64,000 bases of DNA from Firmicutes bacterium UBA4881 (GTDB lineage: Bacteria > Bacillota > DTU065), in contig DHDH01000001.1 in assembly GCA_002399235.1 (NCBI GenBank), forward strand, positions 24,594-88,593, read 5' to 3'. Below are positions 3,426 through 54,045 of this stretch, in pieces (position 1 is the stretch's first letter; each line of letters opens with the position of its first letter). A program made the translations under genes and the position numbers. The notes below the pieces were generated by a model, which was given only the letters and a program-made list of their open reading frames with translations, was not told the origin of the DNA and ran no database searches.

Positions 3426-3440
3426 GTCGCTTGTAAATAG

Positions 3441-3480: not shown

Positions 3481-3552
3481 CTTGTAACTTTAGGGGATAT
3501 AAGGTGAGGAGGAGATTAGTAAAAGATAAAGAAAAGAGTCTATAATGGAAGG

Positions 3553-3720: not shown

Positions 3721-3799
3721 TACATAAATACTAATAAGATTGTTTACTTTATAGCAAACAAATAAGCAATAACTTATGAATAAGTTATCTATAAGATGG

Positions 3800-4010: not shown

Positions 4011-4076
4011 AAAGGGTATCTAATAATACCCTTTTTCAACTATAAAATATTAGAAAGATGCTTTGACAGTAAAGAC

Positions 4077-9323: not shown

Positions 9324-9400
9324 TGGTCGGAGTGCGGGGATTCGAACCCCGGGCCTCTGCGTCCCGAACGCAGCGCTCTACCAAACTGAGCCACACTCCG
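9324..9400 (-). tRNA. tRNA-Pro (anticodon CGG)
   Basis: The reverse complement folds as a cloverleaf: acceptor CGGAGTG/CACTCCG, D arm GCTCAGTTTGGTAGAGC, anticodon stem CTGCG/CGCAG with loop TTCGGGA, T arm GGTTCGAATCC, and an encoded 3' ACCA. Confidence 0.85.
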
Positions 9401-11738: not shown

Positions 11739-11751
11739 AATGATAAACCTC

Positions 11752-12474
11752 CTAGTTAGCATGGAGAAGATTAGCAACATACTCGACAGAATTACGTTCT
11801 GTAAGCATTGCATCAAGAGAGATTAAGCCATCTTGAAGTTTCAATAGTCTTTTAGCTCTGGAGCCAACATTAGCATCATGGGTGACTAATACTACTGTTA
11901 CTCCTTCTTCATTTAACTGGCAAAACATGTCTAGAATCTCTTCTGATTGTGCACTAGCTAGGTTACCAGTAGGTTCATCACCTAAAATTAGTGTTGGGTC
12001 ATTGGCGAGAGCTCTAGCAATTGCTACCCTTTGTTGTTCGCCACCAGAGAGTTGATTAGGATAATGCTTGGTTCTTTTTTCTAAACCAACTTTCTTTAAA
12101 AGTTCGTAGCCACGATCTTTTTGTTCACTTTTGGGTACCTTAGCATACATCATTGGTAAGCAAACATTATCTAGAGCATTAAGTTCTGGCAATAGATTGT
12201 AGGCCTGAAAAACAAAGCCAAAGTGCTCGTTACGAATACGGGAAATTTCTTTATCACTAAGGCCGGTGATATCAGTACTTTCGAGAAGATATTCGCCACT
12301 ATCAGGCAGATCAAGGCAACCAAGTATATGCAATAAAGTCGATTTACCTGAACCAGAGGGGCCCATAATAGCTAACATTTCGCCTCTATCTATCTTTAAG
12401 GAGACACCTTTCAAGGCCTCTACCAGGTTATTACCAAGACGGTAGATCTTTTTAATCTCTTTTAATTCAATCAT
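11752..12474 (-). CDS. ABC transporter ATP-binding protein (MacB/LolD-type)
   Basis: Walker [10 protein letters not shown], signature [14 protein letters not shown], Walker [13 protein letters not shown]-loop VTHD. Start ATG 12474 after GGAGGCAGAGCAA. Its ATGATTGA start overlaps the HlyD stop. Confidence 0.85.
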
Positions 12475-13762: not shown

Positions 13763-13774
13763 TTTCATCCTCCT

Positions 13775-15004: not shown

Positions 15005-15020
15005 GTTATACCTCCTCAAT

Positions 15021-16295
15021 TTATTCTGCACGTAAAGCATCAACAGGGTTGATACGTGAAGCTTTAATAGCTGGATAAATACCAAAAATTAAACTTACCG
15101 TAAGACTAGCACCTAAACTGAGAAAAACAGTAGGTAAAGAAATGGCGAATATTTCTCCTAATGATTTTAAAAGTGGTGTAGCTAGAGCAACTAATCCTAA
15201 ACCAACAAGACCACCTAAAAGGCCTAAGCTTAGCGATTCAATTAAGAACTGCCAAAAAATATTGCTTTTACTAGCACCGATAGCTTTCGAGATACCAATA
15301 CTTTTAGTTCTTTTAAGAACCCGGGCCAACATTAGGTTGAGAATATTCAAAGAAGCAATAAACAAAGCCAAGGATGCTAGGCCACCTATAAAGATTAACA
15401 TCGGTTGCATTGATTTTAAGAAGAACTGCAATTCTTCACGGGCACTTTCTACAGACAAGGAATCACCATACCTAGCTAGGAGGTAGTCCTTTACTTTAGC
15501 TGTTGGATCGTCATTTTTAGGTACTAAGGTAATACTGCTAAAAATGGGATCGTTTGTTTGGTTGCAATTATGTCTAGGCGAGAAGATGTATCTATTCATC
15601 TCGCTTCTAAACCAGGAAAACTGAGTATAACGTTCGGGTATTTCTTCGGGTACCTTTTTCAAAACGCCAATTACAGTAAGAGGTGTATCGATGTGTTCAA
15701 GTTCAATTAATTGGCCAAGAGGGTCTTTATCAGGGAAGAGATCTTGAGCTAAATCGTAACCTATTACAGCAACTGCTTCTTGATTTTTAAAATCGTCAAG
15801 TGTATAAAAGGAACCCTTTTCTAACTCGCCATTTAAAAAGGTAATTAAATTAGGCAAAGTCCAAATAATTGTTAACCAATTTGGATCAGGTCCACTGCGC
15901 CAATCAGTTTCATTCATTGGTGGAGCTCCCTTTAGTCTACCTCCTTGATGTTCATAGGCGAGGATAGTATCAATCTCGGGTATAGCTATTTGTAAATCTT
16001 CGATAAAATCTAAAGAAAGTTTTACTTCTTCAGCTTCAATGCTGCCTACTAGCTGAGCTGGAATTTTATTACCTGATTTATAAAACGTCCTATAATCGTC
16101 AACTTTTTGTTGAATTGTAATGGTGTTTTGCTCGGGGTCGGACATATTTAATTCTCTAGTTCCTTTAATAACTACAGTACCGACAACTGAAAGAACAGCT
16201 ACTCCTAGGGAAATAGCTAATATAATTAAAAGAGATTCAAAAAAACGTGAACGTATCTGTCTAGATGTCCAGGAAATAAGTTGACCTAATCCCAT
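15021..16295 (-). CDS. ABC transporter permease, MacB-like periplasmic domain plus FtsX 4-TM domain
   Basis: Start ATG 16295 after AAAGGAGTGAGAGT. Same architecture as its neighbour. C-terminus ..ASRINPVDALRAE. Confidence 0.75.
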   Translation of the reverse strand: MGLGQLISWTSRQIRSRFFESLLIILAISLGVAVLSVVGTVVIKGTRELNMSDPEQNTITIQQKVDDYRTFYKSGNKIPAQLVGSIEAEEVKLSLDFIEDLQIAIPEIDTILAYEHQGGRLKGAPPMNETDWRSGPDPNWLTIIWTLPNLITFLNGELEKGSFYTLDDFKNQEAVAVIGYDLAQDLFPDKDPLGQLIELEHIDTPLTVIGVLKKVPEEIPERYTQFSWFRSEMNRYIFSPRHNCNQTNDPIFSSITLVPKNDDPTAKVKDYLLARYGDSLSVESAREELQFFLKSMQPMLIFIGGLASLALFIASLNILNLMLARVLKRTKSIGISKAIGASKSNIFWQFLIESLSLGLLGGLVGLGLVALATPLLKSLGEIFAISLPTVFLSLGASLTVSLIFGIYPAIKASRINPVDALRAE

Positions 16296-16406
16296 ACTCT
16301 CACTCCTTTGGAACAAGTATACAATATTAAACTGCCCTACACCATTTTTAATCCTTACAGGTCAGATAATAGTCTTACAATTTTGCAAGGTATTTTTTAC
16401 CTACAT

Positions 16407-28601: not shown

Positions 28602-31600
28602 ATGCATTATATTTGGGCGTTAGTTTTATTCTTGCTTCTTTCGTCTCCGATTTTAGCTACTGATGTGGTGCCTAAAGTAGGAGTTTATATTAGTAAAGAA
28701 GATATTATTAATGCTAGAGAGTTAGCTAACACTAAAGGATGGGCGAAAGCGGAAAAGGATAGAATTATTGCTGTAGCTGATAAGTGGGTTGATGTACCTG
28801 ATGAATATATTAGAAGTATAATGCCCCAGGAAAGAGCAATTTTTGCTTATGGTATAGCTGGTTGCCCAGATCATAATGTTACCTGGACCAATTTTGGTGG
28901 CAATGGTATTGCTGATCTTTCCCAGCCTCTAACTTTAAAATGTCCTGCTGGGCATATTATTGACTTTAATAACCCCGAGAGTAAATACTACGATAGTGGT
29001 AACGGTGTATATATCGATAACAGGCGTTTCTTCTTCCGTGGGGTATGGAATGCCTTTGTTGTCGATACTTTCACAGGCCAAGGATCGGATGCAGGTGCCC
29101 TACATCAACTAGCCTATGCTTATGCTTTAACTGGAGAGGACCAATATGCTAAAAAAGCAGCTATTATTTTTGATGCTCTAGCTCATCTATCTCCCACTAC
29201 TAAAGGACCTCGAGATTTCCATGTAGATGATAAGGCTATAGCTGGTAGATTACATTTTTTAACTTCAATAGTTCATCGCTCCAAAGTGCATTTTGTCCGA
29301 AGTTTTGATCTACTATACAATAATCCTGCTATGCAGGCTAAATCTTATTATAACGATCAGACTATTGCTCAAAATGTAGCTAAAGGTATTTTAGAGGATT
29401 ATATGTTTGTAGAGTTTGATCTGAGAAATGGTAAGCTGACAACGATGCATAATCATGAATCAGATGAATTGAGAGGTATGCTAGCTACAGGTTTAGTACT
29501 TGGTAATCCCGATTATATCCGGTGGGGAATTCAAGCTGCTTCTTATTTTTTCGAAAACACAATAGATCGAGATGGCCTTTACTACGAAGGCTCTCCTTCA
29601 TATGCGAATTTTACGCAGACAGTGTTTTCTGATATTGCTGAGTTGGCTTATTATTACAATCCAGAGAACTATGATCTAGAGGGTTTACCAGAGAGAGTAA
29701 ACTTTTATGATCACCCTAAACTTAGGGAGTTTTTAGCTGAGATGAGAAATAAATTAGATATTGCTGGCCACTTTGCGAGTTATGGTAATGCTTCTTCTGA
29801 TAGATTAAGGATTGAGGTGGGAGCAAGAACCATTGATGGTAAAGAATTTCTTTTACTAGATCAGCTCTACCACCGGACTGAAATTCCTGAGTTAAAAGAG
29901 ATTTATAAAGAAAAGGTTTTAGAGTATAGCCAAGGAAATCCTGACCAAAGGCGTTCAGGAACCTGGGCACTATTCCATGTAAAACCGGAGGCTTACCCAG
30001 AGGTAGAACGTTTTCGTCAGACAGATCAAGCGAAAACAGCTTATTACGCGGGACCTAGTTTAGCTATTTTAGGCTCCGGAGAAGGCAGAGAAAGGCGAGG
30101 CCTGCTACTAAGAGGCGGACCGAATCTACCTCACTCTCATGATGATGCACTAGCCCTTTTTTACTATGATAAAGGTTACCTCTTAACCCAAGATAATGGT
30201 TACAACATCTTTGGTTCACCTCTGCATTCAGGCTGGGGCTCCCAAGCTGTGAGCCACAACCTAGTTGTAGTTGATAATGATAAATATCGTAAAGGGTGGT
30301 ATAAAAACACTCCAGGAGCAGAAATCTTAGGTTTTGCCAATTTAGATGGACTCAAGTATGTTCATCTAGACGCACCTTACCAGTTCCCAACTTCAGCATT
30401 TATTAAGGAATATAGCAGGCAGACTGCTCTGATCGATATCGATAATAGAAATTCTTATGTTGTTGATGTCTTTACTGTGAGAGGTGGCCAAAGACATGAT
30501 TATGTTTTCCACACCGCAGCACCAATTTTAGAAACCGATTTAGAGTTTAATGAAATTGAAGGTGTTTGGACTTTAGGTGGTTTAGATTACCCCGAAGCTA
30601 GTTTCAATAAAGAAGGCCAAAGCTGGGGCGAAAGAATATTGCCTGGCGATATGATTAAAGATATTGGTATTCCTAGCGAAGGTGTCAAATCAATGTACTG
30701 GAATCCAGCACCACAAAATGGATATGGTTTTATTTACAAATTGCAAGCAGGTACCTTAGAAGAAAATATGATTGAAGCGCGCTTCAAGTTTTATGATGGT
30801 ACTGATACCACCTTAACCAATAGGTTATTCTTCGATAGGGAGAGTAAACTTTATAAAGGTCTCGGGCCTAATTTGGCTGGCAAAGAAAAATACCCCTATC
30901 TTATTCTTAGAAGCGAAGCTTCCAAGAATTTAGAGAGTAGAGTTATATCTATAATGGACGCTTCTTTTGGAAGCTCAAACTTAGAAGAAGTAAACAGAGT
31001 AGATAACAACGCCTTCGAAATAGCCTTTTACGATGGCCAGAAACACTATCTCCTCTTAAATGGTGGGAAGTCTAATACACCAATTGGATCTGTAACAAGT
31101 ACTGCTGAACTCGCGTTGGTAAAATTTGCTGATAATGAGCTTAAAGAAATTTTATTGGTAGGTGGCGGTTTATTACAGGTAAATGATCAACCTCTACTAG
31201 AGAACAAAGTTCAAGAAGTAGAAATTATGGCTGTCGACTATAATAAGTCGGAGATAACATTGGCAGGACATTTAGAAAGCCAAAAAGGTGAGCTCGTAGC
31301 GATTGATAGCCGAAGTTATGTTCGTAATACAACCTACACTATTAAAGAAGTTAAGTATGAAGATAATAAAACAATTCTTGCTCTAGAAGGTTCACTGGTT
31401 TTAGCCAAAGGAAAAGTAGAAAAAGGAACTAGACATTTAACTTTAAATGTACCTTTACCAACAGGATTTTCTTATTCCGATTCTACTCGCTATTTAAATG
31501 GCAAATTGTTTATTAGAGAAAAAACAGGTGAAGGACAGAAGATAAAATCTGTAACAGGTTTTAAAGCAGTTTCTATCAATAGTGATATACCTTTTGAGCC

Positions 31601-31679
31601 TCAAGATAGTTTTCTCATAGTTGATATCAAAGTTGGCGATATACTTACTACACTACCAAAATTGCACTGGACTAAGTAA
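28602..31679 (+). CDS. secreted polysaccharide lyase-like protein (heparinase II/III-like)
   Basis: Signal peptide. The central motif PHSHDDALALFYYDKGY resembles the HxHxDxxSF signature of heparinase II/III-like lyases (PL12/15/17/21 type). Large extra C-terminal β-rich region. Family call is from memory. Confidence 0.45.
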   Translation: MHYIWALVLFLLLSSPILATDVVPKVGVYISKEDIINARELANTKGWAKAEKDRIIAVADKWVDVPDEYIRSIMPQERAIFAYGIAGCPDHNVTWTNFGGNGIADLSQPLTLKCPAGHIIDFNNPESKYYDSGNGVYIDNRRFFFRGVWNAFVVDTFTGQGSDAGALHQLAYAYALTGEDQYAKKAAIIFDALAHLSPTTKGPRDFHVDDKAIAGRLHFLTSIVHRSKVHFVRSFDLLYNNPAMQAKSYYNDQTIAQNVAKGILEDYMFVEFDLRNGKLTTMHNHESDELRGMLATGLVLGNPDYIRWGIQAASYFFENTIDRDGLYYEGSPSYANFTQTVFSDIAELAYYYNPENYDLEGLPERVNFYDHPKLREFLAEMRNKLDIAGHFASYGNASSDRLRIEVGARTIDGKEFLLLDQLYHRTEIPELKEIYKEKVLEYSQGNPDQRRSGTWALFHVKPEAYPEVERFRQTDQAKTAYYAGPSLAILGSGEGRERRGLLLRGGPNLPHSHDDALALFYYDKGYLLTQDNGYNIFGSPLHSGWGSQAVSHNLVVVDNDKYRKGWYKNTPGAEILGFANLDGLKYVHLDAPYQFPTSAFIKEYSRQTALIDIDNRNSYVVDVFTVRGGQRHDYVFHTAAPILETDLEFNEIEGVWTLGGLDYPEASFNKEGQSWGERILPGDMIKDIGIPSEGVKSMYWNPAPQNGYGFIYKLQAGTLEENMIEARFKFYDGTDTTLTNRLFFDRESKLYKGLGPNLAGKEKYPYLILRSEASKNLESRVISIMDASFGSSNLEEVNRVDNNAFEIAFYDGQKHYLLLNGGKSNTPIGSVTSTAELALVKFADNELKEILLVGGGLLQVNDQPLLENKVQEVEIMAVDYNKSEITLAGHLESQKGELVAIDSRSYVRNTTYTIKEVKYEDNKTILALEGSLVLAKGKVEKGTRHLTLNVPLPTGFSYSDSTRYLNGKLFIREKTGEGQKIKSVTGFKAVSINSDIPFEPQDSFLIVDIKVGDILTTLPKLHWTK

Positions 31680-32578: not shown

Positions 32579-33877
32579 ATGAGTTTTAGTGACTTGTTAA
32601 GGTTAAGTAGTAAACAGTTAAGAGCAAGAAAAATTGAGACGATGTTGATTGTTTTAGCTGTAGCCTTAAGTGTTCTAGTTTTAGCTGTAATTCTCTCCCC
32701 CCTTTATGTTAGTAGATTACCTGTAAAAGACATTAGAGATTTTATTGTGACAGTTAATCAAAGTGCATCTAATATTAACAATGAACTTTTAAATGGTTCC
32801 GGTTTTCCTTTAATTCGCTATGATATTCCCGATGATCCTAGTTCACATAGACTAACTATAGAAGAAGTTGAAGAGATCTTTCAAGCGATTCCAGAAAGTA
32901 AGTTTTATTTCTCAGGTAGTAGATCAGGTTCTAGAATAAGAGGTTATAATCAGTATCTTCCCTCATCCTTTTCCCAAAGTTCTAATATAGGATATCAGGG
33001 TGGTATGCTATCGCTTACGCCTTTAACCCCCGAGGCGATTTATGGGCTAGAACTTAAATTAGCATCTGGTTCGCTCTATACAAAAGAAGATTATCTAAAT
33101 AACAAACCTTATATCATTCTCGGCTCAGATTTAGCTAAAAGTTTATTTCCAAGCGAAAATCCCATTGGCAAAACCGTTGAAACTATATCTGTGAACTCTC
33201 CTACCTTTACGGTTTTAGGAGTATTAGAACCAGTTTCTTTTGACTCGGATGATAAAAAATATAGTGCTGTCAACAATCTTCTTAAAGACATTAATCAAAT
33301 GGCTATTAGTAGCTATACAAGTGTGATTCCTCCTGAACAAGGACCAACTTATAGTGTTGTATTATTCTACCCTAAAACCCCCTCTCTAAAATTACAAAAT
33401 CAGATTGCATCTTATCTTAAAAAACACTATAAAGGCTTCTTTAATGCTTCTTGTCCCTATGCTTTGTATAGTTCAGCGATGAAGAATTGGCAAAAATCTT
33501 ACCTTGTTCTAGGCATAATCGCTACTTTAATTCTACTCATTGCTTGTATAAATATTATGAATTTGTTTTTTGTTCGTATTGCCAAACAAAATAGAAGCAT
33601 TGGTCTGAATGTGGCTCTTGGTGCAACTAAAAAGACCATATTTTCTCAATACCTAGTTACTGCAATCATACAAGGTCTACTTGGTGGTTTTCTAGGTGTT
33701 TTAATTTTTTGGTGTATCTCTAAAACTGGCCTTAGGCAAACTTTCCATCTTGTTTTCAATATTCAAGCAATCCTTTGGGGTATTGCTTCTGGTATTTTTA
33801 TGAGCTTAGTTTTCGGTATCTATCCAGCAGTAGTAGCAGCGAGTACAAGTCCTGTTGATGCTCTCCGAATGGAATAA
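32579..33877 (+). CDS. ABC transporter permease, MacB-like periplasmic domain plus FtsX domain
   Basis: Paralog of 15021..16295. C-terminus ..AASTSPVDALRME. Confidence 0.75.
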   Translation: MSFSDLLRLSSKQLRARKIETMLIVLAVALSVLVLAVILSPLYVSRLPVKDIRDFIVTVNQSASNINNELLNGSGFPLIRYDIPDDPSSHRLTIEEVEEIFQAIPESKFYFSGSRSGSRIRGYNQYLPSSFSQSSNIGYQGGMLSLTPLTPEAIYGLELKLASGSLYTKEDYLNNKPYIILGSDLAKSLFPSENPIGKTVETISVNSPTFTVLGVLEPVSFDSDDKKYSAVNNLLKDINQMAISSYTSVIPPEQGPTYSVVLFYPKTPSLKLQNQIASYLKKHYKGFFNASCPYALYSSAMKNWQKSYLVLGIIATLILLIACINIMNLFFVRIAKQNRSIGLNVALGATKKTIFSQYLVTAIIQGLLGGFLGVLIFWCISKTGLRQTFHLVFNIQAILWGIASGIFMSLVFGIYPAVVAASTSPVDALRME

Positions 33878-33896
33878 ACTTAGGAGGTGTATATCA

Positions 33897-35147
33897 GTGT
33901 CGATTTTTCGCAAAGGACTATACCTGTTTAAGAAAGATTCCGTAAGAACTATTCTCACAGTTAGTCAATTTGCCTTGGGAATAGCGGTAGCTTTAATTGT
34001 AGTAAATATAAGCGTAAGCTTAAGTAGATTTACTTTAGAAGCACAGACCTATTTTAACCCTGATTTTGGTATCTACACCGCCTCGTCAAATACAAGTTTA
34101 CTTGGTCCTATTACTAATAGTTATGGTCGTCCACTACCTCCACCGCAATTTGCTGACCAAATTAGCCTTGATTCTAGTGTAATAGCAGCAACTAATTTGC
34201 TTCGAGACAACAAAAAAATTACTGCTAACGGTATTAGCTATATCACAATAACTCACCAGGGTATCTCTACTTTACCTGAAGTAATCCCCATAAAATTTCT
34301 GCATGGGTCGTATTTTTCCGAAGATGAAGAGAATAACCAGGTTGCAGTTATCTCTGAGTCATTAGCTCGAGCTCTTTTTGGCCAAACCAATGTAATTGGT
34401 AAAAAAATAATGACCGAGAAATACACCTACACTCCATTTTATAGTTCCATGAAATATCCTCAAACAGAATACACAATAGTAGGAGTCTACCAAGATTTTC
34501 CCTTTATAGCTAGACAGGTTTTAGATAAGATTAACTTTATTCATACCAAAGCGGAAGATAATACTATTATCCAAAGTGCTGGGACAATTTACCTTAAAGC
34601 ACAGAAAGATAGATTAGTTGAGGCTGAAAAAGTATTAGAAAAGTTAGCTAAAGATTACTACGGTGAAGAGGCTAAGATCCAGCCAATTAATATCAAAGAG
34701 AAAATATCTTATAGTCTGGCTAGAGGCTTATCGTTAAAGAACCACTTTAACCTTATTGCTATTTTTGCTGTAATTGTGAGCTCTATTGGTATCCTTAGTG
34801 TGATGGTTGCTTTTGTAGCTGATAGAGCTAAAGAAATCGGTGTAAAGCGAGCTTTAGGAGCTAGCAAAGCGACTATCTTTCTGGAGATAATAATGAATAC
34901 ATTATACTTAACATCTTTTGGTGCTATAATTGGCATTTTGATTGCTTTACTCACCTCGCCAATTTTATATGCAGAGTTAACAGATTCTATATCGCAATTA
35001 CAGACCTTTAGTAGTACTGATTTTGCTCTCTTACCAAGTTCAATTCTTATAGTATTCTTAGCAGCCTGTCTAATAGGCGTTGTCTTTGGTATCTATCCTG
35101 CATTGCTGGCAGCGAATCTTCCTCCATCAGAAGCTTTACGGGAATGA
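33897..35147 (+). CDS. ABC transporter permease, MacB-like periplasmic domain plus FtsX domain
   Basis: GTG start 33897, 8 nt after AGGAGGTG, immediately following the previous stop. Paralog of 13775..15004. C-terminus ..AANLPPSEALRE. Confidence 0.7.
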   Translation: MSIFRKGLYLFKKDSVRTILTVSQFALGIAVALIVVNISVSLSRFTLEAQTYFNPDFGIYTASSNTSLLGPITNSYGRPLPPPQFADQISLDSSVIAATNLLRDNKKITANGISYITITHQGISTLPEVIPIKFLHGSYFSEDEENNQVAVISESLARALFGQTNVIGKKIMTEKYTYTPFYSSMKYPQTEYTIVGVYQDFPFIARQVLDKINFIHTKAEDNTIIQSAGTIYLKAQKDRLVEAEKVLEKLAKDYYGEEAKIQPINIKEKISYSLARGLSLKNHFNLIAIFAVIVSSIGILSVMVAFVADRAKEIGVKRALGASKATIFLEIIMNTLYLTSFGAIIGILIALLTSPILYAELTDSISQLQTFSSTDFALLPSSILIVFLAACLIGVVFGIYPALLAANLPPSEALRE

Positions 35148-35161
35148 GGGGTGAAGGTAAA

Positions 35162-36460
35162 TTGGATAAATACCAACCGATTATTAGGGAAAAACCGAAA
35201 AACCCGAGAAAAAGCCAGCAAACAAAGCTAATCCTGTTTATTCTTCTAGGTATCACGGTTTTAATAACGGTACCTATCTACTTGTTTCTACCTCAAAATC
35301 AAACTTATAAGCTTTACGATTATACTTACTCCACTGTTAAGACTAGGACTTTCCGCGAATATATAACTGTAGCTGGCCAGATTAACGCTCGTAAAGTAGT
35401 TAACCTTACTGCTCCATTTAAAGGTTGGCTAGAAGAGATCTATGTTAAAACTGGTGATTTGGTAGCTGAAGGTGATTTACTATTTAGGTTAGTTTCAGAT
35501 GACCTAGATAAAGAACTGGTAGAGGTAACCGAAAATCTAGCTAAAGCAACTAATGACTTGGAAAGATCTAAATTAGATCTCATGATCGAAACCCAAAGAT
35601 TTGCTAAAGATGCCAGGGAGCGCAATAACCAAATTAATCAGCTTGAATCTACATTGAAAGAAAAAGAAGCGCTTTTTGAACTAGGAGCCCTTAGTAAAAA
35701 AGAGTTAAATAATGCTATTGAAGCTTTTGAATCAGCAAAACTTGATCAAAGTATTAAACAATTGACTTCGGAAAAAACTCTTCTAGCTGCTAAAATGTCC
35801 TTAACAAATTCAGAAAAACAGTATCGCCTGGCTCAAGAAAAACTTGCTGAAATTAATCTCCTAATTAGTAATAAAGAAATTAAAAGTCCGATCGCAGGGA
35901 AGATATTAGAAACTACCGATCTAAAAGATTCTGAGGTTAATACAAGTAATATTCTCGCGAAGATTGCCACTATTAATAATCCTTATGTACAAATCTTCAT
36001 CCCTACTACAGAAAGCGAAAAGATAATAAATGGTTTACCTGTAACCATTAAAACAACAACCTCTAATTACAAAGGATATGTAGATAAAGTTGCTCTCAAT
36101 ATCCAAAACCATACAACCTTAGGTCCTACTGTTGTCGGGACTGTACTTTTTAAGGAAAACCCAGAATTTATCATTCCTGGTACCGAATGTAAAGTGGAGA
36201 TAGAACTAGGTAGTAGAGATAGTGTTTTGTATCTTCCCCGTGGTCCTTATATAAGTACAGGATCTAGTATGAATGCTTACACCATTAAAGATAATAAAGC
36301 AAACAAAACTCCAGTACGTTTAGGTGTTTTCGATGGTAGTGATGTAGAAATTATCGAAGGGTTAGAGGCTGGAGACGTTGTTATTACAAGTTCATATGAG
36401 GACTTTATCGAGTTTTACCAAATAGAGATAGATCCAAGAGGAGGGCGTAAAAATGATTAA
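35162..36460 (+). CDS. HlyD/MacA-family periplasmic adaptor
   Basis: TTG start after GAGGGGTGAAGG. The N-terminus DKYQPIIREKPKNPRKS aligns with KDKPIIINKPRPKKS of the operon-1 paralog. Coiled coil plus β-barrel domains. Confidence 0.7.
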   Translation: MDKYQPIIREKPKNPRKSQQTKLILFILLGITVLITVPIYLFLPQNQTYKLYDYTYSTVKTRTFREYITVAGQINARKVVNLTAPFKGWLEEIYVKTGDLVAEGDLLFRLVSDDLDKELVEVTENLAKATNDLERSKLDLMIETQRFAKDARERNNQINQLESTLKEKEALFELGALSKKELNNAIEAFESAKLDQSIKQLTSEKTLLAAKMSLTNSEKQYRLAQEKLAEINLLISNKEIKSPIAGKILETTDLKDSEVNTSNILAKIATINNPYVQIFIPTTESEKIINGLPVTIKTTTSNYKGYVDKVALNIQNHTTLGPTVVGTVLFKENPEFIIPGTECKVEIELGSRDSVLYLPRGPYISTGSSMNAYTIKDNKANKTPVRLGVFDGSDVEIIEGLEAGDVVITSSYEDFIEFYQIEIDPRGGRKND

Positions 36461-37178
36461 GTTAGACAACATTGTCAAGCTATATTCATTAGGCGATAAT
36501 ATTATTCGAGCTTTAGACGGAGTCACTCTATCTATTGAACGTGAAGATTTTATCTCCATAATGGGCCCATCTGGTTCTGGAAAGTCTACGTTGTTACACA
36601 TTTTAGGTTGTTTAGATCTACCCACAAGTGGTGCTTATTATCTAGAAGATGTAGATATATCCCACCTAAGTGATAAAGAAATATCGCGAATTCGCAATCA
36701 GCATTTTGGTTTTATTTTCCAAGCTTATAATTTGCTTCCAGAGTTAAACGCTTTAGAGAATGTTGAACTACCGATGATCTACAAAAAGATATCCCTTAAA
36801 GAGCGGAAAGAAATTGCTAAATCATTATTAGACAAAGTTGGTCTAGCACATCGCATAAAGCACTTCCCCTCACAATTATCAGGTGGAGAGCAACAAAGGG
36901 TAGCTATAGCTCGTGCACTTGCTAATAATCCTACTTTGATTCTTGCCGATGAACCTACTGGTAATTTGCCTAGCGAACATGGTGAAGAGATTATGGAAAT
37001 GCTGTGTCAGTTAAACGAAGAAAGCTCTACGATAATAGTTGTCACTCACGACCATAAAATCGGTTCTTATGCTAAAAAACTAATTCGATTAAAAGACGGT
37101 TTAATCGTCTATGAAAACGAGATAACAGAACGTTTTTCAGCTGAATATGTCTCGAAAATTGCTGCTTCCACAGTGTAG
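36453..37178 (+). CDS. ABC transporter ATP-binding protein (MacB/LolD-type)
   Basis: [37 protein letters not shown]. Its ATGATTAA start overlaps the HlyD stop, the same junction as in operon 1. Confidence 0.85.
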
Positions 37179-37188
37179 GAGGATGAAA

Positions 37189-38208
37189 ATGAGACATTTA
37201 GCTGTAATTATAAGTATCCTAGTGTTAAGTTTAAGCATGTCAGCAGAACTCCTTTCTTTAGATACGCTTATCGATGCAGCTGTTAAAATTTCGCCTAATA
37301 TTTTAAGTGCTGAGCTTACAATTGAAGATGCCGAGATCGAATTAAAACGTGCACTCTATAAAGAAACCACTCTACCTCCTAATACAATAAACGAAAAGAA
37401 AAAAGCTATTGAAAATGCCTGGTTTAACCTAGAAAAAACCAAAAAATTAGTTAATAAAGAGACTAGTAATATTGCTTTATCAGTTCTAAAAGCTCAACAT
37501 GGTCTAAGACAAAAAGAGATCTCCTTTTTAGAGGCTAAACGAGATCTAGAAATTGCAGTTGTAAAGTTTGATAGAGGAAGTATCTCCTTAAACGATCTGA
37601 TAGGTTTCGAAGATAAGTACACTTCTAGTAGTGATGCAAAAGAGCAAAGCAAAGAAACTTTAAAACTTGCTAAAGAAAAACTATGTCAACAGGTTGGTTT
37701 AGACTTTGACACAGAAATTGAAGTGGATTCTAAATTAGAGCCTCTGATCTTGAATATCTCTTTAGACGAGTTAATAGAAGCCAATAAGCGGTATGATTCT
37801 TCTTATCTTTCGGTAGTTAACTCTGTAAGTTTACGCGAAAGCGAACTAAAACAAATGCTCGAAGATAAAGAAGCTAATCTTACTATCCGCCAAAAAGAAA
37901 TTAGCCTAGAAAAAGCTAAGATTGATCTAAAAGCTAAAGAAAGTACGATTATCTCTAACTCCCGAACAACCTTATCGGCATATAACTCCCAGTTAAAAAA
38001 TCTAGAAAAGGCTGAAACTGAAGTTACAAAGGCTAAAAAACGTTTAAATGAAGCTTATAAGCAATACGAAGATGGTTTAATTACTTTAAATGACCTAGAA
38101 GACCGCCAATACCAAGAAGAGATAGCTTTAATGAAGCTTGTAGAAGCTAAATGGGACCTTCATTTAGCTAGTCTTTCGCTACAGATGGTTTTTGAAGGCG
38201 GTGATTGA
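37189..38208 (+). CDS. TolC-like outer-membrane efflux protein
   Basis: ATG 37189, 6 nt after TAGGAGG. Signal peptide MRHLAVIISILVLSLSMSA. Coiled-coil-rich. Confidence 0.6.
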   Translation: MRHLAVIISILVLSLSMSAELLSLDTLIDAAVKISPNILSAELTIEDAEIELKRALYKETTLPPNTINEKKKAIENAWFNLEKTKKLVNKETSNIALSVLKAQHGLRQKEISFLEAKRDLEIAVVKFDRGSISLNDLIGFEDKYTSSSDAKEQSKETLKLAKEKLCQQVGLDFDTEIEVDSKLEPLILNISLDELIEANKRYDSSYLSVVNSVSLRESELKQMLEDKEANLTIRQKEISLEKAKIDLKAKESTIISNSRTTLSAYNSQLKNLEKAETEVTKAKKRLNEAYKQYEDGLITLNDLEDRQYQEEIALMKLVEAKWDLHLASLSLQMVFEGGD

Positions 38209-39407
38209 TTATGCCTAGAAAACTTATTTTCTTCATTTTACTCTTACTTTTAACTAATTCATCGATAGCTCTCACTTTAGATGAAGCTTTTGAATTAGCT
38301 AAAAATGGTCCCGAGGGTATCGCTTTGCAAGCTGTGGTAAAGACTGATATCAGTTATTCTTTAGAATTAAACTCAAAGATTTCTTCAGATAATCTCTTAA
38401 CTTCGACAGAAATTAAAGGACTTGCGCAAATAAAATCTCTCAATTTATCTGGTACAGTAGACCTAAAAAACAAAAATGCTAATGCTCGTTTTAACCTACC
38501 TTTAGAGCTAATAAATTATAAGGCACTGTATAAACCTGACACTGACTTGTTATTAAGCCTTAGAAGTCGGGTAACTAATCTCTTCTTTAATATTCTAGAG
38601 AGTGATAACCAATTAGAGGCTAAACTATTAGCTTTAGAAATAGCGAAAGAAGAATACGAAAGAAGTAATCTTTACTTTGCCAGAGGTACTATCTCTTTTA
38701 AAGCCCTTTCTCAATCTTTAGAGGAAAAACAAAGAGCAGAAAATCAATTACAACAATTCATCAATACTTATAAAGATAACCAAAATGAACTAGCTTATCT
38801 CCTGGACTTAGTAGGAGTGCAGCCTCTTACCGATGACTATTCGCTAACTTTTAAACTTTTAGATGATCTGCCCTTAACCGAAAAAGAACAATCTGAACTC
38901 GATTACCCTATACTTGCAGCACAGCTTGAACTCGAACAGTTAAAGAAGCTACATTTCCCGCAACTAAGCCTAGAGGGAACTGGAAGTATAGGGCAAACAA
39001 ATAAATATTATGTAGGTCTATCCCTAAGATACCTTGTTTTGAGTAGTAATCAGAATGCTTTAAAAAGGAACGCTCAAGCAAAGCTAGAAAATGCTAAACT
39101 CGAACGAAATAAAAAAGAAAGAAACTTAATAAAAGAGAAAAACCGCCTGAAAAACGACTATAACAATGAGGTCTTAGCTTTAGAAGCCGCTAAACTCAGA
39201 TTAAAAGAAAATGAAGAATTTTATGAGTTAGCAAGCAAAGCGTATCAGGATGGTCTAATTTCGGATCTCGATCAAAAAAGAGCTTATTTAACTCTGTTGC
39301 AAGCTAGGGCTAATTACAAGTCTACCTACCACAAGTGTTTTAAACTGAAGCTAGCAATAGAAGGGGTTACCCTCTACCAGCAGGGTAATCTGGCAATAAC
39401 TATCTAA
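38205..39407 (+). CDS. TolC-like outer-membrane efflux protein
   Basis: Signal peptide MPRKLIFFILLLLLTNSSIA. Coiled-coil repeats. Overlaps the previous gene by 4 bp. Confidence 0.6.
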   Translation: MIMPRKLIFFILLLLLTNSSIALTLDEAFELAKNGPEGIALQAVVKTDISYSLELNSKISSDNLLTSTEIKGLAQIKSLNLSGTVDLKNKNANARFNLPLELINYKALYKPDTDLLLSLRSRVTNLFFNILESDNQLEAKLLALEIAKEEYERSNLYFARGTISFKALSQSLEEKQRAENQLQQFINTYKDNQNELAYLLDLVGVQPLTDDYSLTFKLLDDLPLTEKEQSELDYPILAAQLELEQLKKLHFPQLSLEGTGSIGQTNKYYVGLSLRYLVLSSNQNALKRNAQAKLENAKLERNKKERNLIKEKNRLKNDYNNEVLALEAAKLRLKENEEFYELASKAYQDGLISDLDQKRAYLTLLQARANYKSTYHKCFKLKLAIEGVTLYQQGNLAITI

Positions 39408-45650: not shown

Positions 45651-45767
45651 AAAAATTAAGACCTTCTACCTAAAGGTTAATTAAAATAATCTTTGGTAGG
45701 AGGTTTTTCTTTTAAAACCACTAACATAATGTTAGATTTTATACAAATTAATAATGGAGGTGCAGAA

Positions 45768-48524
45768 ATGCACTTAAAAAAGAAAAGGATCTGGTTAATT
45801 CTAACCATCTTGCTCCTAGTGCTCAAGGGTGAGGCTTTTCCTTTAACAAAAGAGGAGAAGATTGCAGATTGGCAATTTTATTGCCAGACAATACTTGCGA
45901 ATTACCCTTATTTTGAGGTTAATGCTCGCGTGACAGGACGAGATTGGCGAGATAGTTTACAAGAACTTAAAAAAAGAGTCCTAGAGAGTGAAGATGATCT
46001 TAGTTTTTATGAGGCTATTCAGTATGCTACAGCAACCCTGCAAAACGGTCATACTCACATTATTCGGCCGGAAAGCTATGCTAATTATGCTAGTTCTTAC
46101 GCTGGTGTTAAACGCTGGGAAGACGCTTTCACAGCTGAGGTCAAAACAGCTTATGACTATTGGCAAGAGGTTGTAAATGGTAACAATGAATTTTACGCTT
46201 TTGATATTCGCTATGTTGCCGGAAGCTATATAGTTACTCGTGTAGGTGAAGAGATAAAGGATTTACCAATAGCAGCGGAAGTTTTAGCTATAGGTGGTCA
46301 GAATGTTGATGACTATGTCTTAGAGAAGGTAAAAACTACACAGATTCTCCTAGATCCAATTAAGGGCAAGCGATATGTAAATAATCTTTCTTTGCCTGAG
46401 GGTGCAATCAAACTAACAATTAAAAAGGATAACAAAATTCAAGATGTTGTGGTAGAAACAATAACCAACATAGAACCAGTAGCAAATTATACAAGGCCAG
46501 CTACAACAACTGATATATTAGAATCAGATAAGATTGCCTATGTGAAAATTCCTTCATTAAGCGGATCTTTAATAGACAACGATAAGGAAATGTTACTTTC
46601 TTTTTTTCAAGAGATCAAAGACTATCCTTATTTAATTATTGATATTAGGGGTAATGGTGGGGGCTCCGATTATTACTGGATGAATAATATCATGGCGCCT
46701 TTAATAGATGAACCAGTTGTTGTTCAAACCTACACGGCTCATCGTAAAGCTCCTTTTATTCGTTCTTTCTACAATGCCCGCCTTGGTTTAGCTAATAATA
46801 TTTTTAGACGTTCCAAAGCAGTTTTAGAAAGCTTACCGAATTTACCTTCTGAGGTCCTTACTAATGATTTTGCTGATCCCATGGAATTTAAATATACGAT
46901 AAAACCGAAAAACAGTGTAGGCTATCAGGGACAAATCATTTTGTTAGTAGATGGAGGAGTTTATTCAGCAGCGGAAACCTTTGCTATGGTAGCTAAACAT
47001 TCTGGTTTTGCTTATCTTGTGGGCACGAGAACAGGTGGTGATGGGCCTGGTATCGATCCTGTGTTTTTTTCCTTGCCCCATAGTAAATTAGTGATTCGCA
47101 TGGCAGAAAGTATAGGCCTAAACCCAAATGGTGCTGCTAATGAAGAAGAACACACCTTACCTCACCTTTGGGTTGCTCCTGAACCAGAGTATTACATTGC
47201 CTCACTTACGTCACAGAATGGTTATGATAGAGATAGACAATTAAAAACCGTTCTAGAGCTAATTGCTACAGATAATTTAATAGCAAATAAGATAGCAGCC
47301 AATAAAGAACAGGTGCCTTCTATAATGGAGCATCTTTTCAGTGGGGTTAATAGTAGTACAGATCAGGAACTTAGTCAATTCCAGGGTAAAACCATCTCGG
47401 AGGTACGCATTTACGGAGCTTATGCGACTAATTATGCTAAGCTAGAGAAACTAATTGATCTAAAACCAGGGGAAACGGTAAAAGTAAAAAAATTACGTAT
47501 GTTAGAAGATAGATTAAATGCCACAGGTGCTTATGCCCAAGCAGCCATTAATTTAAGCGAAGAAAGTAAAGGGGAAGTAATTGTTAAGATTCAGGTAAAG
47601 GAAGGTTTTCTTTTCTTTCTTACGCCTTATGATGCCTTCACGACTGTTATGTCTGATATTACTAGTAAGAGTCTTACGGGCAAGATTTATAATATAAATG
47701 GTGGTTTGCATAACTTTTCTATTACAGCCTCTATTCCTAATGAGCGACTAGAACTTAGTTGGGAAACACCTCTTATTTTCACTAATACCTATCAAACTAG
47801 TGTAGCTGTAGGTAGCTTGAAATATGGTAATCTAGTAACTACAGGATCAGAAAAAGGAAGAGGTTATCTTTTAAGAGACAATTATTTGCGTGCTGATATT
47901 TCTTTAGGAGTAGCACCTGCTACGAGAATTTATTTGCAGACAGCTTATTTTCAGGATACTTACCTTGAGACAGACACCCTCTCGCCTCATGGCCTGAAAA
48001 ATGGTGATTACTATGAAGTTGCTTTAGGGATCAACCAAACAATAAGAAACTTTTATACACTCCAAACTATACATCAATTAAATTCTTCTTTAACACTGGT
48101 TGGAGCAGGGAAGGAACTAGGGTATCGGCTAAGCACTGGCCTGCGTTCATATTTCCAAGTCGGGGATAAACTTAGGTTTACAATTAAACTAAATACTGGT
48201 TTAGCTGAAACAGTTCCTTATCAAAGACTGTACCAGATCAGTAGCAACTCCTTACCAGCCTACACTGGCATTACTATGCAAAAATTTGTCTTAGCAGGGC
48301 TAGAGAATACTATTTATCCAATAAAAGATATCTCTCTCGTTATTGGTTTATCAGGATTATATGGTAAAGAAGGGTTAGACGCTAGTATTAATAATGCTTA
48401 TCTTTCTTTATACGGAGCTCTACGGTATAGGTTGCCGTTTGGTTTACCGCTAGGTGTAGTTTATGGCTATGATCCTTTAAGCGGTGTTAGCAGAATTAAC
48501 TTTGGTATTAGTAATGAATTTTAA
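45768..48524 (+). CDS. S41-family peptidase fused to a POTRA domain and a C-terminal outer-membrane β-barrel
   Basis: ATG 45768 after AATGGAGGTG. Signal peptide. S41 motifs IIDIRGNGGG and GGVYSAAETFA. POTRA-like segment (ISEVRIYGAYATNYAKLEKLIDLKPGETVKV..). About 300 aa of alternating β pattern ending ..RINFGISNEF with a terminal Phe. Confidence 0.6.
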   Translation: MHLKKKRIWLILTILLLVLKGEAFPLTKEEKIADWQFYCQTILANYPYFEVNARVTGRDWRDSLQELKKRVLESEDDLSFYEAIQYATATLQNGHTHIIRPESYANYASSYAGVKRWEDAFTAEVKTAYDYWQEVVNGNNEFYAFDIRYVAGSYIVTRVGEEIKDLPIAAEVLAIGGQNVDDYVLEKVKTTQILLDPIKGKRYVNNLSLPEGAIKLTIKKDNKIQDVVVETITNIEPVANYTRPATTTDILESDKIAYVKIPSLSGSLIDNDKEMLLSFFQEIKDYPYLIIDIRGNGGGSDYYWMNNIMAPLIDEPVVVQTYTAHRKAPFIRSFYNARLGLANNIFRRSKAVLESLPNLPSEVLTNDFADPMEFKYTIKPKNSVGYQGQIILLVDGGVYSAAETFAMVAKHSGFAYLVGTRTGGDGPGIDPVFFSLPHSKLVIRMAESIGLNPNGAANEEEHTLPHLWVAPEPEYYIASLTSQNGYDRDRQLKTVLELIATDNLIANKIAANKEQVPSIMEHLFSGVNSSTDQELSQFQGKTISEVRIYGAYATNYAKLEKLIDLKPGETVKVKKLRMLEDRLNATGAYAQAAINLSEESKGEVIVKIQVKEGFLFFLTPYDAFTTVMSDITSKSLTGKIYNINGGLHNFSITASIPNERLELSWETPLIFTNTYQTSVAVGSLKYGNLVTTGSEKGRGYLLRDNYLRADISLGVAPATRIYLQTAYFQDTYLETDTLSPHGLKNGDYYEVALGINQTIRNFYTLQTIHQLNSSLTLVGAGKELGYRLSTGLRSYFQVGDKLRFTIKLNTGLAETVPYQRLYQISSNSLPAYTGITMQKFVLAGLENTIYPIKDISLVIGLSGLYGKEGLDASINNAYLSLYGALRYRLPFGLPLGVVYGYDPLSGVSRINFGISNEF

Positions 48525-48648: not shown

Positions 48649-50151
48649 TTATAACTTACTAGATAATAACCAATCTACGATATCAAGATAGATTTTTTCT
48701 GGTGATTGGAAAACTTCTTCGATACCGAATTTAGGATTATTCAGAGGAGATGGAGTGAAGTAGTGAGTAAGATGAGGGTAGGTAATGACTTTAATCCCAG
48801 TAGATTTTTGAAATGCTCTTCTTAAGTCTTCTGCATGATGGGGAAGAACTTTGAGGTCAGCTTCACCTTGCAGAATTAACACAGGTTGAGTAACCAAACT
48901 AGCCAATTTACCTGTATCAGTTTCCATATGTTGTTTAAGGTAGGGGCCAGTAAAGCCAAGTGGAGTAATAGCTTGCCCTTTTTTCGCTAACCCTAGACTG
49001 GTTTTAGTTAGGTCCAAAAGTCCCTCAAGGTATTTGCGATTTTGTGCAGAAAGATTTGGTATACCTAACTGAGAATTAAGCTGTTCTAATAATATTTGAT
49101 CTAAAGATTGGCTTGGAGTAGCAAGTAAAATAAGAAAGGCTATATCATCTCTATTTGCAGCTAACTTAGTTGCGATTACTCCGCCTTCACTATGGCCTAA
49201 GATACCAATCTTTTTAACATCCGTTCGTGTTTTAAGGTAATCGATAGCTTTTACGCTATCTTCTATTAAGGTCTGAAGATCCTTATTCATATGGTTACCA
49301 GTGCTTTTGCCTGTACCTCGATCATCAAAGCGCAAGACACCATAGCCATTAGCTATTAGGTAGCGAGTTAAATGTTTAAAAAGGCTGTTATTCATCTCTG
49401 GGGGTGAATTGTTATCCCGGTCTTGGGGTCCAGAACCAGATAGCAGTAAAAGGACTGGAAACTGACCTGTGTTTTTAGGCAAATCTAATTCTCCGTGTAG
49501 TAAATCATTTTCACGGCTAATAACAACAGGAATCGAACGATAATTTATGTCTTGCTGTTTTTTAAATACCGTTTCCCAATCCTGTAGATAGCACTCTAAT
49601 CCTTGTGTTGGAATAGAAAGACGTACTAATTTATCTTCGAAAAAATAACCAAAAACAGCTAACTGTCCTACATTAACCTGACGAACTTTAGTATTATAAG
49701 GGCCGGGAGCCCAAGCAGAATAGTTCGCTTTAAGCATGAGTAGCTGAGAAGGAACCACAATTTGGGAAGGAGCATCTTGAAAAATATATGACCAGAGAAA
49801 AAAAGTGTTGTTCTCTACAGGATATAAACCTTTACCTCTAAATGTTCTACTTTGCTTTGCTACAGTAAATGTCGCTGAGTTACCTTTTAGGGTTCCTGTT
49901 ATAGAAACTTGATTATTTAAGTTAGCTTGATATAGTTCCGGTTGGTTACCTTTAAAAGCTAAAGTTTGAGAAAAAAGCAGTTTTTGTCCAGAAGCATTTA
50001 TCTCAGTGTTAGTAATGACTTGGTTATTAACAAAAACTACTTCTTCAAAACCTAATAAGGCATCACCCATGTAGATTACATATTTTGTAGCTAAGGTTGG
50101 TAAAGAAATTAAAATAACTAAAATTAATAAAAAACATTTACGCATCTCCAT
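48649..50151 (-). CDS. secreted alpha/beta-hydrolase fold protein with N-terminal β-domain
   Basis: Signal peptide. Nucleophile elbow GHSEGG. Catalytic Asp and His candidates lie downstream. About 200-aa non-catalytic N-terminal domain. Confidence 0.65.
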   Translation of the reverse strand: MEMRKCFLLILVILISLPTLATKYVIYMGDALLGFEEVVFVNNQVITNTEINASGQKLLFSQTLAFKGNQPELYQANLNNQVSITGTLKGNSATFTVAKQSRTFRGKGLYPVENNTFFLWSYIFQDAPSQIVVPSQLLMLKANYSAWAPGPYNTKVRQVNVGQLAVFGYFFEDKLVRLSIPTQGLECYLQDWETVFKKQQDINYRSIPVVISRENDLLHGELDLPKNTGQFPVLLLLSGSGPQDRDNNSPPEMNNSLFKHLTRYLIANGYGVLRFDDRGTGKSTGNHMNKDLQTLIEDSVKAIDYLKTRTDVKKIGILGHSEGGVIATKLAANRDDIAFLILLATPSQSLDQILLEQLNSQLGIPNLSAQNRKYLEGLLDLTKTSLGLAKKGQAITPLGFTGPYLKQHMETDTGKLASLVTQPVLILQGEADLKVLPHHAEDLRRAFQKSTGIKVITYPHLTHYFTPSPLNNPKFGIEEVFQSPEKIYLDIVDWLLSSKL

Positions 50152-53808: not shown

Positions 53809-54045
53809 AAAATAAAAAAAAGAAACCGTCCCCCAGAAAGGGACGGTTAATACCGCGGTACCACCCTAGTTGCCCCCTAAGGGGCCACTTGATCCTTATA
53901 ACGGTAGGGAACCGAAGAAGGCTACTGAAAGTTCACCATCTTAGCTCTAGGGTGTACTTCATCTGAATTCTAGCTACCAGTTTACACCGACCACTGGCTC
54001 TCTAAAAGTCGAAGACAGACTACTCTCCCTGTCATTGCTTTATTC
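53809..54045 (-). promoter_or_regulatory. T-box riboswitch leader (Tyr specifier UAC) with terminator/antiterminator
   Basis: Minus-strand reading: sigma-A-like promoter TTGACG-17-TAGAAT; stem I with AGAGAG; specifier loop ..GAAGUACACCC (UAC followed by A); conserved T-box AACUAGGGUGGUACCGCGG (plus 53853-53871); terminator ACCGUCCC-loop-GGGACGGU followed by a U-run (plus 53809-53847). Confidence 0.85.

Follow-up and report, generated by a model that had tools for sequence, protein, structure and literature searches.

An S41 serine protease joined to a single POTRA domain and an Omp85-type β-barrel in an apparently diderm Firmicute: architecture, catalytic type and a possible periplasmic location

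On which side of the outer membrane does a protease act when it is part of the same polypeptide as an outer membrane β-barrel? The question was raised by a gene at positions 45768..48524 (+) of a 64,000-nucleotide stretch of DNA from Firmicutes bacterium UBA4881 (contig DHDH01000001.1, positions 24,594 to 88,593), which is referred to below as the window. The gene was present in the list of open reading frames (ORFs) of the window as one uninterrupted ORF with a 918-aa product. The domain order of this product, from the N- to the C-terminus, was a Sec signal peptide, a Peptidase_S41 domain, a flexible linker of ~37 aa, one POTRA domain and a β-barrel with a terminal Phe. The original prediction, made from the sequence of the window, had described a type Vd autotransporter-like protein with a protease passenger. 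The likeness to PlpD and FplA in domain order was upheld; however, the word "passenger" assumes secretion, and the enzyme domain of PlpD has turned out to be periplasmic (PMC11116518). An outer membrane-tethered periplasmic protease was favoured here over a secreted passenger, with a confidence about evenly balanced by doubt.

Both enzymatic and POTRA domains were matched by Pfam above the curated cutoffs, namely Peptidase_S41 (PF03572, aa 255-465, E=1.4e-26, 93.4 bits, cutoff 24) and POTRA (PF07244, aa 542-613, E=4.1e-6, 27.8 bits, cutoff 21.3). The ORF, the signal peptide and the two S41 motifs were also present as the original prediction had quoted them. In public databases, the entries for these sequences were unnamed or "hypothetical" proteins, and no description of an S41-Omp85 protein was found in full-text literature searches. 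The earlier claim that no protease version of such a fusion was known was therefore sustained as far as papers are concerned, but a non-patatin enzyme-Omp85 fusion, the "Metallo" type (PF00149), had already been catalogued (PMC4104836).

An assembly or annotation artefact joining two genes would have nothing in its favour except that all of the sequences were metagenomic. Such an origin was refuted by the uninterrupted ORF and by the occurrence of the same protein, identical in sequence, on at least eight contigs of independent ENA, JGI and NCBI assemblies, including the metagenome-assembled genome (MAG) GCA_002409345.1. Moreover, relatives with the same architecture were found at 28-46% identity in other lineages, one of them on a 57-kb Thermotogota contig. 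Because the identical protein recurred in independent assemblies, the fusion was taken to be genuine and the chance of an artefact to be negligible.

The start site was placed at ATG 45768. A ribosome-binding site, GGAGG, was read from the sequence at 45756..45760 (+), 7 nt 5' of this ATG, whereas the public gene calls begin upstream, at TTG 45693 (943 aa) or ATG 45729 (931 aa). Since both the ribosome-binding site and the signal peptide fit ATG 45768, we consider it the best start and the public calls too long. The scans for promoters and terminators gave results at or below the shuffle expectation. The N-terminus of the product, MHLKKKR-IWLILTILLLVL-KGEA, is a canonical Sec signal peptide without a lipobox. 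It covers aa 1-23 (MHLKKKRIWLILTILLLVLKGEA; 45768..45836, +) of the translation, was modeled with a predicted local distance difference test score (pLDDT) of <50, and its n-, h- and c-regions were recognised by eye rather than by a predictor. The export of the protein by this signal peptide is strongly supported by the translated sequence. The lipoprotein identity was rejected, as the signal peptide has no Cys.

The catalytic core of the protease (aa 255-465; 46530..47162, +) was delimited by the Pfam match, by alignments to Prc, CPAF and 4ghn, by conservation and by Foldseek. The motif IIDIRGNGGG occupies aa 290-299, and the motif GGVYSAAETF occupies aa 396-405 and holds the nucleophile S400. 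The full-length model had a pLDDT of 72.7, and its protease half was matched by Foldseek to 4ghn (Bacteroides), CPAF and CtpA with E values of ~1e-15. S400 was aligned with S452 of Prc and with the Ser of the CPAF FSCAD motif, and sits in a G-x-x-S-A-(A/S)-E motif. The original prediction had named the lack of a catalytic Ser/Lys dyad in the S41 domain as a refutation. The dyad was ruled out: in an ungapped profile alignment with residues 435-478 of E. coli Prc, the catalytic K477 of Prc fell opposite D425 (in TGGDG), and the T-F-G-K-G motif of the Prc/CtpA type, with its catalytic Lys ~25 residues past the Ser, was absent from the query. The test itself was nevertheless the wrong one, because Ser400, His95 and Glu459/460 were conserved while the Lys position was an invariant Asp. 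K410 was also considered as the base and rejected, since CPAF and 4ghn also have a Lys at +10 relative to the Ser, where it is non-catalytic according to our own reading of the alignments.

The catalytic type was instead resolved by comparison with CPAF. The Glu of CPAF (E558), located 59 residues past its Ser, was aligned with E459, and the distance between S400 and E459 is 59 residues too. H95, S400 and D425 were each invariant in 64/64 family members, fused and unfused, and E460 was kept in 63/64, from which it follows that the protease is, as judged by conservation, under strong purifying selection and not a dead enzyme. E459 was found in 59/64 of the same members, and H97 varied. H95 lies in the LQNGHTH motif and is conserved also in 4l8k and 4ghn. 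The N-terminal helical sub-domain (aa 26-137; 45843..46178, +), seen as helices in the model, ends in this invariant motif. The relatives matched the Pfam model Tricorn_C1 just upstream of LQNGHTH, and no such match was obtained for the query, with the isolated N-terminal segment scanned at E<=10. The catalytic His of tricorn and CPAF presumably sits where H95 is, just past the Tricorn_C1 stretch, and H95 is the probable general base. The best matches of the protease half were CPAF (Chlamydia CT858), the tricorn-type S41 enzymes and 4ghn and 4l8k, both from Bacteroides structural genomics. With the CPAF/tricorn type the protein shares the motif of the nucleophile Ser, TGGD/TAGAG in place of the Lys motif, the downstream Glu and an N-terminal helical domain with a conserved His. 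In contrast, CPAF/tricorn, 4ghn and 4l8k are soluble or secreted proteins without a POTRA domain or barrel, and their identity to the query was only 14-18%. The protease is thus probably an active S41 enzyme of the CPAF/tricorn type that uses Ser400, His95 and Glu459/460 in a mechanism different from that of the dyad.

A β-rich insert, visible as DSSP strands (aa 145-245; 46200..46502, +), is located at the position of the PDZ domain of tricorn/CtpA enzymes. It was missing from the shorter family members P0009, P0104, P0106 and P0112 (an alignment gap in P0009). No PDZ match was obtained with Pfam on aa 130-250, even at E<=10, and by its position the insert might correspond to a PDZ domain.

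The protease half is followed by the weakly conserved flexible linker (aa ~504-540; 47277..47387, +), which had a pLDDT of 29-45 in the full-length model and varied in length and sequence among the relatives. The single POTRA domain (aa 541-613; 47388..47606, +) has a β-α-α-β-β order, and was identified by Pfam, by the secondary structure in both models and by profile matches to the POTRA domains of BamA/TamA. Next comes a hydrophobic extended segment, FLFFLTP (613-619), and then an amphipathic helix (620-632), both seen by DSSP in two models and in the family alignment (47607..47666, +). The helical hydrophobic moment of this stretch was 1.18, compared with a strand moment of 0.67. With the register taken from the YN.xGG motif, FLFFLTP and the helix would occupy the position of strand β1 and loop 1 of BamA.

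The remainder of the protein (aa 634-918; 47667..48521, +) was assigned as an Omp85-type transmembrane β-barrel with 15 long DSSP strands. For the last ~300 aa of the query no Pfam match was obtained, neither as part of the full-length protein nor when these residues were scanned by themselves at E<=10. The Omp85 barrel model PF01103 was matched by the distant full-length relatives P0007, P0008, P0104 and P0107 and by the stand-alone protein P0105. A profile built of 15 C-terminal modules matched BamA of F. nucleatum (1.8e-20) and TamA of E. coli (1.6e-10), and the alignment to BamA/TamA took in the L6 loop as well as the last strands. An AlphaFold2 model of aa 520-918 (pLDDT 86.6, predicted template modeling score (pTM) 0.79) comprised the POTRA domain, 15 long strands and an L6-type loop, and the barrel was modeled with a pLDDT of 80-95. 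This model was matched by Foldseek to TamA/BamA with a query-normalised template modeling score of 0.62-0.68 over 420-490 columns (E~1e-15), and the TpsB protein CdiB and Sam50 ranked below them. The alternation of hydrophobicity was about twice as high in the strands as in control windows (2.87 and 1.43, respectively).

Based on four independent lines, namely the PF01103 matches of the relatives, the profile, the model with its Foldseek matches, and the amphipathic alternation together with the aromatic C-terminus, it is strongly supported that the C-terminal ~300 aa form an Omp85-type barrel similar to that of BamA/TamA. The predicted C-terminal β-barrel ending in Phe was accordingly borne out at the level of fold, although the Pfam barrel model remained silent in the query. 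The last strand with its β-signal-like motif (VSRINFGISNEF) and the stop codon is located at 48486..48524 (+) by translation; the chain terminates in ...FGISNEF, and a terminal F or Y was found in 13/15 family members. Of the 16-strand barrel that had been predicted, the barrel as opposed to a soluble fold was retained, but the number of strands counted by DSSP was 15, with the extended segment and the helix at the position of β1. Sixteen membrane passes are nevertheless suggested by the parity of loops and turns, and residues 613-619 would then stand in for β1.

The L6-type loop (aa 815-834, ..VPYQRLYQISSNSLPAYT..; 48210..48269, +) was located by the family alignment and by hidden Markov model alignments to 9ccg and 4c00. 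At the motif F.GG..S(L/I)RG(Y/F) of BamA/TamA, this protein has SLPAY and most relatives have (S/A)FAAY, so that the Arg-Gly pair is gone. Likewise, of the (V/I)RG(F/Y) signature of the Omp85 superfamily the loop could be aligned, but the Arg-Gly was absent. The protein is a member of the Omp85 superfamily at the level of profile and fold, with an atypical L6 motif. It was also observed that both deviations, the replaced β1 and the L6 lock without Arg-Gly, are conserved in the family and are situated at the functional seam of Omp85 proteins.

Two other types of outer membrane proteins were rejected as the class of this protein. The TpsB (type Vb) membership was rejected on account of the one PF07244 POTRA, the lack of any POTRA_2 or ShlB match and the position of CdiB below BamA/TamA in Foldseek. 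The type Va (SPATE) proteins likewise unite a protease and an outer membrane barrel in one polypeptide. Their protease, however, is of the S6 (chymotrypsin-like) family and is carried on a β-helix stalk, the barrel has 12 strands, there is no POTRA domain, and both sequence and fold are unrelated. No S6, β-helix or PF03797 match was obtained in the Pfam scan, and the barrel was of the Omp85 type.

The protein is built like PlpD of P. aeruginosa and FplA of F. nucleatum, in which a Sec signal, a hydrolase, a linker, a single POTRA domain, an Omp85 barrel and an aromatic C-terminus follow in the same order, yet it falls outside that family, having no patatin domain and a barrel of a separate clade. 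The enzyme of PlpD/FplA is a patatin phospholipase A1 with a Ser-Asp dyad, whereas an S41 serine protease with Ser-His-Glu and no patatin match is found here. The hosts also differ, being Proteobacteria and Fusobacteria for PlpD/FplA and Bacillota and Thermotogota for the S41 fusion. All type Vd passengers described by the time of a 2019 review of type V secretion were lipases (PMC6555100). For PlpD, which dimerises, it was later reported that the enzyme domain stays in the periplasm and is not secreted, and POTRA domains have so far been found in the periplasm only (PMC11116518). The authors of that work raised energetic arguments against passing a globular, folded domain across a closed Omp85 barrel, and their reclassification of PlpD in 2024 raised the idea that the Omp85 scaffold is re-used for new functions (PMC11116518).

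Ten subfamilies of Omp85/TpsB proteins were distinguished by Heinz and Lithgow in 2014, including "Patatin-like" and "Metallo" (PF00149) and no S41 class, and periplasmic quality control was proposed by them for the "Metallo" enzyme-Omp85 fusions (PMC4104836). Those proteins are likewise fusions of an enzyme with Omp85 for which a periplasmic role has been proposed, but their enzyme is a calcineurin-like phosphoesterase and not a serine peptidase. With TamA/BamA the protein has in common the YN.xGG junction of POTRA and barrel and the L6 loop, and the G.VW strand motif is shared by most family members. On the other hand, TamA and BamA have three to five POTRA domains, the Arg-Gly of L6, a regular β1 and no N-terminal enzyme, while here one POTRA domain is present, the Arg-Gly is replaced, the predicted β1 is irregular and an enzyme is attached.

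With an exhaustive phmmer search, 17 relatives of the POTRA-barrel module were obtained among 1.84 billion representative proteins. Ten of these were scanned with Pfam; most of the ten were S41 fusions, and a patatin domain was found in none (0/10). In a sister group (P0108, P0111, P0113 and P0115, 976-997 aa), the same module carries PF03417 (AAT / C45 Ntn-hydrolase) and TPR; an AAT-fused gene of this group is located at positions 1047-4040 of locus L092. P0105 (450 aa, locus L091) is the POTRA-barrel module alone and adjoins a nonribosomal peptide synthetase gene. The genomic contexts of the stand-alone P0105 and of the AAT-fused P0108 gave no further information. No relative turned up when a genome collection was scanned with the single protein; a scan based on the alignment recovered relatives. 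The S41 fusions recovered in this way came from MAGs of Bacillota and from three other MAGs labelled Petrotoga, Thermotogota and Thermotogaceae; a complete 803-aa gene lies on the 57-kb contig of one of these three. The habitats of the hosts were digesters and fermenters.

Full-length relatives P0001-P0004 have 46-95% identity and retain the U32/MutS2/gene/hydrolase synteny, and the more distant full-length relatives P0007-P0009 have 26-31% identity. Synteny was limited to the close relatives, and no neighbour genes were shared among P0007, P0008 and P0009; hence, there was no sign of a dedicated partner gene. An orthologue in the Bacillota MAG STF2_155 (locus L008, 10001-11737), which shares the MutS2/hydrolase synteny, looked interrupted, with a longest ORF of 337 aa and a match covering aa 5-586; a pseudogene, or an error of sequencing or assembly, could account for this.

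The nearest unfused S41 proteins (~530 aa, 33-40% identity) belong to monoderm Clostridia, e.g., Caloramator and Thermosediminibacter, and start with a transmembrane signal-anchor, not a cleavable signal peptide. In a neighbour-joining tree the fused S41 domains grouped together, comprising 12/15 leaves of a common clade. Strict monophyly of the fused domains had a bootstrap support of 32%, with three anchored unfused sequences nested among them: P0058 and P0060 with a lipobox and P0059 with a transmembrane anchor. The transmembrane and lipid anchors of the unfused relatives, together with the clustering of the fused S41 domains, suggest that one extracytoplasmic, membrane-tethered family of proteases has swapped its anchors. 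P0059 is labelled as coming from a Candidatus Heimdallarchaeota MAG (139-kb contig), which could be due to a horizontal transfer or a binning error.

From this architecture and catalytic type we infer the topology of the protein as follows. The folded protease of ~50 kDa (the N-terminal ~480 aa) would stay at the outer membrane's periplasmic side, held by the flexible linker of ~37 residues. The Omp85 module would be an anchor and not a secretion pore, replacing the N-terminal transmembrane or lipid anchor of the closest unfused relatives. The tethered protease would cleave proteins of the envelope, either in turnover and quality control or in the processing of wall-remodelling enzymes. Its role would be that of Prc and CtpA, which in Proteobacteria are tethered to the outer membrane by the lipoprotein adaptors NlpI and LbcA and act on periplasmic substrates (PMC11211486 for Prc with NlpI, PMC11021448 for CtpA with LbcA). 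Both of these S41 proteases are kept on the inner side of the outer membrane and degrade peptidoglycan hydrolases of the periplasm. Their tether, however, is a separate TPR lipoprotein and they possess a Ser/Lys dyad and a PDZ domain, whereas here the tether would be a covalent β-barrel and the catalytic type is another one. More speculatively, a barrel anchor may be an alternative to a lipoprotein adaptor where the sorting of outer membrane lipoproteins is missing or uncertain. For example, neither LolA nor LolB could be found in Negativicutes, and the accessory lipoproteins of BAM, BamB-E, were likewise not found in diderm Firmicutes (PMC5007114).

Several observations led us to favour the periplasmic tether. 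The enzyme domain of PlpD is periplasmic, and the energetic objections raised for it apply here too; the barrel resembles BamA/TamA and not TpsB; the unfused relatives are membrane-tethered and not free; the sister family adds TPR, a typical module of periplasmic interactions; and Prc-NlpI and CtpA-LbcA provide a precedent for S41 proteases kept on the inner side of the outer membrane. The globular α/β fold of the protease domain, which is not a β-helix, was also counted in favour of a periplasmic location. Some points weigh on the opposite side. The full-length model had a pTM of 0.43, and S41 may or may not dock on POTRA as the enzyme domain does in PlpD. The disordered linker of ~37 aa would, as modeled, be long enough to thread the pore, and the changes of the L6 lock and β1 might just as well reflect a pore that is altered and more open. 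A surface protease used for feeding would make sense for hosts of digesters and fermenters. Neither a substrate nor a partner gene was indicated, synteny being kept only among close relatives. Finally, His95 was assigned as the base by its conservation and position, without a direct alignment to H105 of CPAF or H746 of tricorn.

The same linker, pore and habitat arguments form the case for a true type Vd-style autotransporter, in which the linker would thread the barrel and the S41 domain would be displayed on the surface or released as an extracellular protease of nutritional or competitive use. This explanation, which seems rather unlikely but carries the most weight among the alternatives, draws on the domain order of PlpD/FplA as first interpreted (PMC6555100), on the disorder of the ~37-aa linker, on the loss of the Arg-Gly lock and the unusual β1 region, which could loosen the pore, and on the protein-rich fermenters and digesters of the hosts. 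However, secretion of PlpD itself was refuted experimentally, and the objections to moving a folded globular domain without periplasmic ATP hold here equally (PMC11116518). The closest unfused relatives, moreover, are membrane-tethered and not free secreted enzymes. To our knowledge, export of a folded, covalently attached enzyme is not documented for barrels of the BamA/TamA type, which also counts against this explanation. A different function was considered as a special case of the periplasmic model, namely a quality-control device for outer membrane proteins, analogous to BepA/DegP at BAM. The seam of POTRA and barrel would bind the C-terminal β-signal of unassembled or stalled outer membrane proteins, and the attached protease would degrade them. 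Omp85 barrels and POTRA domains bind β-signals and nascent outer membrane proteins, and S41 enzymes commonly recognise the C-termini of their substrates, both of which would suit such a device. A comparable role was proposed by Heinz and Lithgow for the "Metallo" fusions (PMC4104836), and the accessory lipoproteins of BAM were not found in diderm Firmicutes (PMC5007114). The device is, however, a purely inferential construct; β1, which binds β-signals in BamA, is apparently replaced by the extended segment and helix, no PDZ domain was detectable, and the rarity of the family means that it is no general requirement. We consider this function improbable.

A wider version of the same idea, a long shot in our estimation, would unite the S41- and the C45/AAT-TPR-POTRA-barrel proteins in an unrecognised "enzyme-on-Omp85" class of deep-branching diderms of the Bacillota and Thermotogota, in which the capture of β-signals would feed a hydrolase and replace BepA/DegP and the lipoprotein adaptors where no accessory lipoproteins of BAM were found. 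The proposal that the protein is the BamA/TamA-type insertase of the organism, with the protease as an accessory, is very hard to uphold. BamA and TamA were indeed its best structural and profile matches, but the single POTRA domain, the degenerate L6 motif and the missing regular β1 gate strand argue against an insertase, as does the sparse distribution, with 17 relatives among 1.84 billion representatives. A separate canonical BamA was also present beside TamB/Skp in all Negativicutes and Halanaerobiales genomes analysed in a 2016 study (PMC5007114).

Omp85 proteins have been described as insertases or translocases, with the exception of PlpD and the "Metallo" fusions; PlpD is the only Omp85 protein with an attached enzyme that has been studied experimentally, and the "Metallo" fusions were catalogued without reported experiments (PMC11116518, PMC6555100, PMC4104836). 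The S41 protease and the C45/AAT-TPR proteins would be the second and third classes of enzymes on a dedicated POTRA-barrel module, and would independently support the re-use of the scaffold; Bacillota and Thermotogota are the hosts of both. They offer new test cases for whether such domains cross the membrane, and protease activity is simple to localise. The family is also a further marker of outer membranes among uncultured Firmicutes, and suggests a way in which diderms with few or no outer membrane lipoproteins might keep hydrolases on the inner side of that membrane. If the protease were secreted after all, it would be the first non-lipase passenger of type Vd. We rate the interest as moderate for the fields of Omp85, type V secretion and diderm Firmicutes, with the main value in test cases that are easily assayed.

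The host had been predicted to be a sporulating Firmicute with an outer membrane, of which the affiliation and the membrane were supported. MutS2, encoded directly upstream of the fusion gene, had relatives of 68-73% identity only in MAGs labelled "Firmicutes/Bacillota bacterium"; the identity then fell to ~48%, with Hydrogenispora ethanolica as the best cultured match among many Bacillota. The affiliation to Bacillota is supported by these MutS2 relatives and by a T-box leader (158 bits) at window positions 53836-54044 (-), upstream of tyrS, and the L32/plsX/fab gene order fits Bacillota as well. Four TolC-family genes (PF02321; 64, 49, 42 and 33 bits, cutoff 22) and the Omp85 barrel give good evidence, at the level of gene content, for an outer membrane in the host. 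The sporulating nature was not borne out, as no sporulation-specific Pfam annotation was found among the genes of the 64-kb window and a gene for a small acid-soluble spore protein was found only on the contig of a distant relative. That gene, of the α/β type (PF00269), is located at L094 6179-6403 on the contig of P0007, and the family is for this reason likely to be present in at least one spore-former.

The TolC-family genes belong to two paralogous MacB-type efflux operons at 32579-39407 (+) and 9464-16316 (-). Each contains two MacB_PCD/FtsX permeases, a membrane-fusion protein and an ABC ATPase, and each ends in a tandem TolC-family (PF02321) pair and not in the usual single gene. A lone tRNA-Pro(CGG) gene was observed at 9324-9400 (-), just downstream of the minus-strand operon. 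The convergent neighbour of the fusion gene (48649-50151, -) codes for a 500-aa α/β hydrolase that bears a signal peptide and has Hydrolase_4/S33, S9- and S15-like matches. It stands beside the S41-Omp85 gene in the 46%-identical relatives too, but not in the distant ones. Another gene, at 28602-31679 (+), codes for a protein of 1025 aa that combines alginate-lyase and heparinase II/III-like domains and adjoins the gene of a sugar-binding protein; it was kept at the same place in the locus of a relative (L005).

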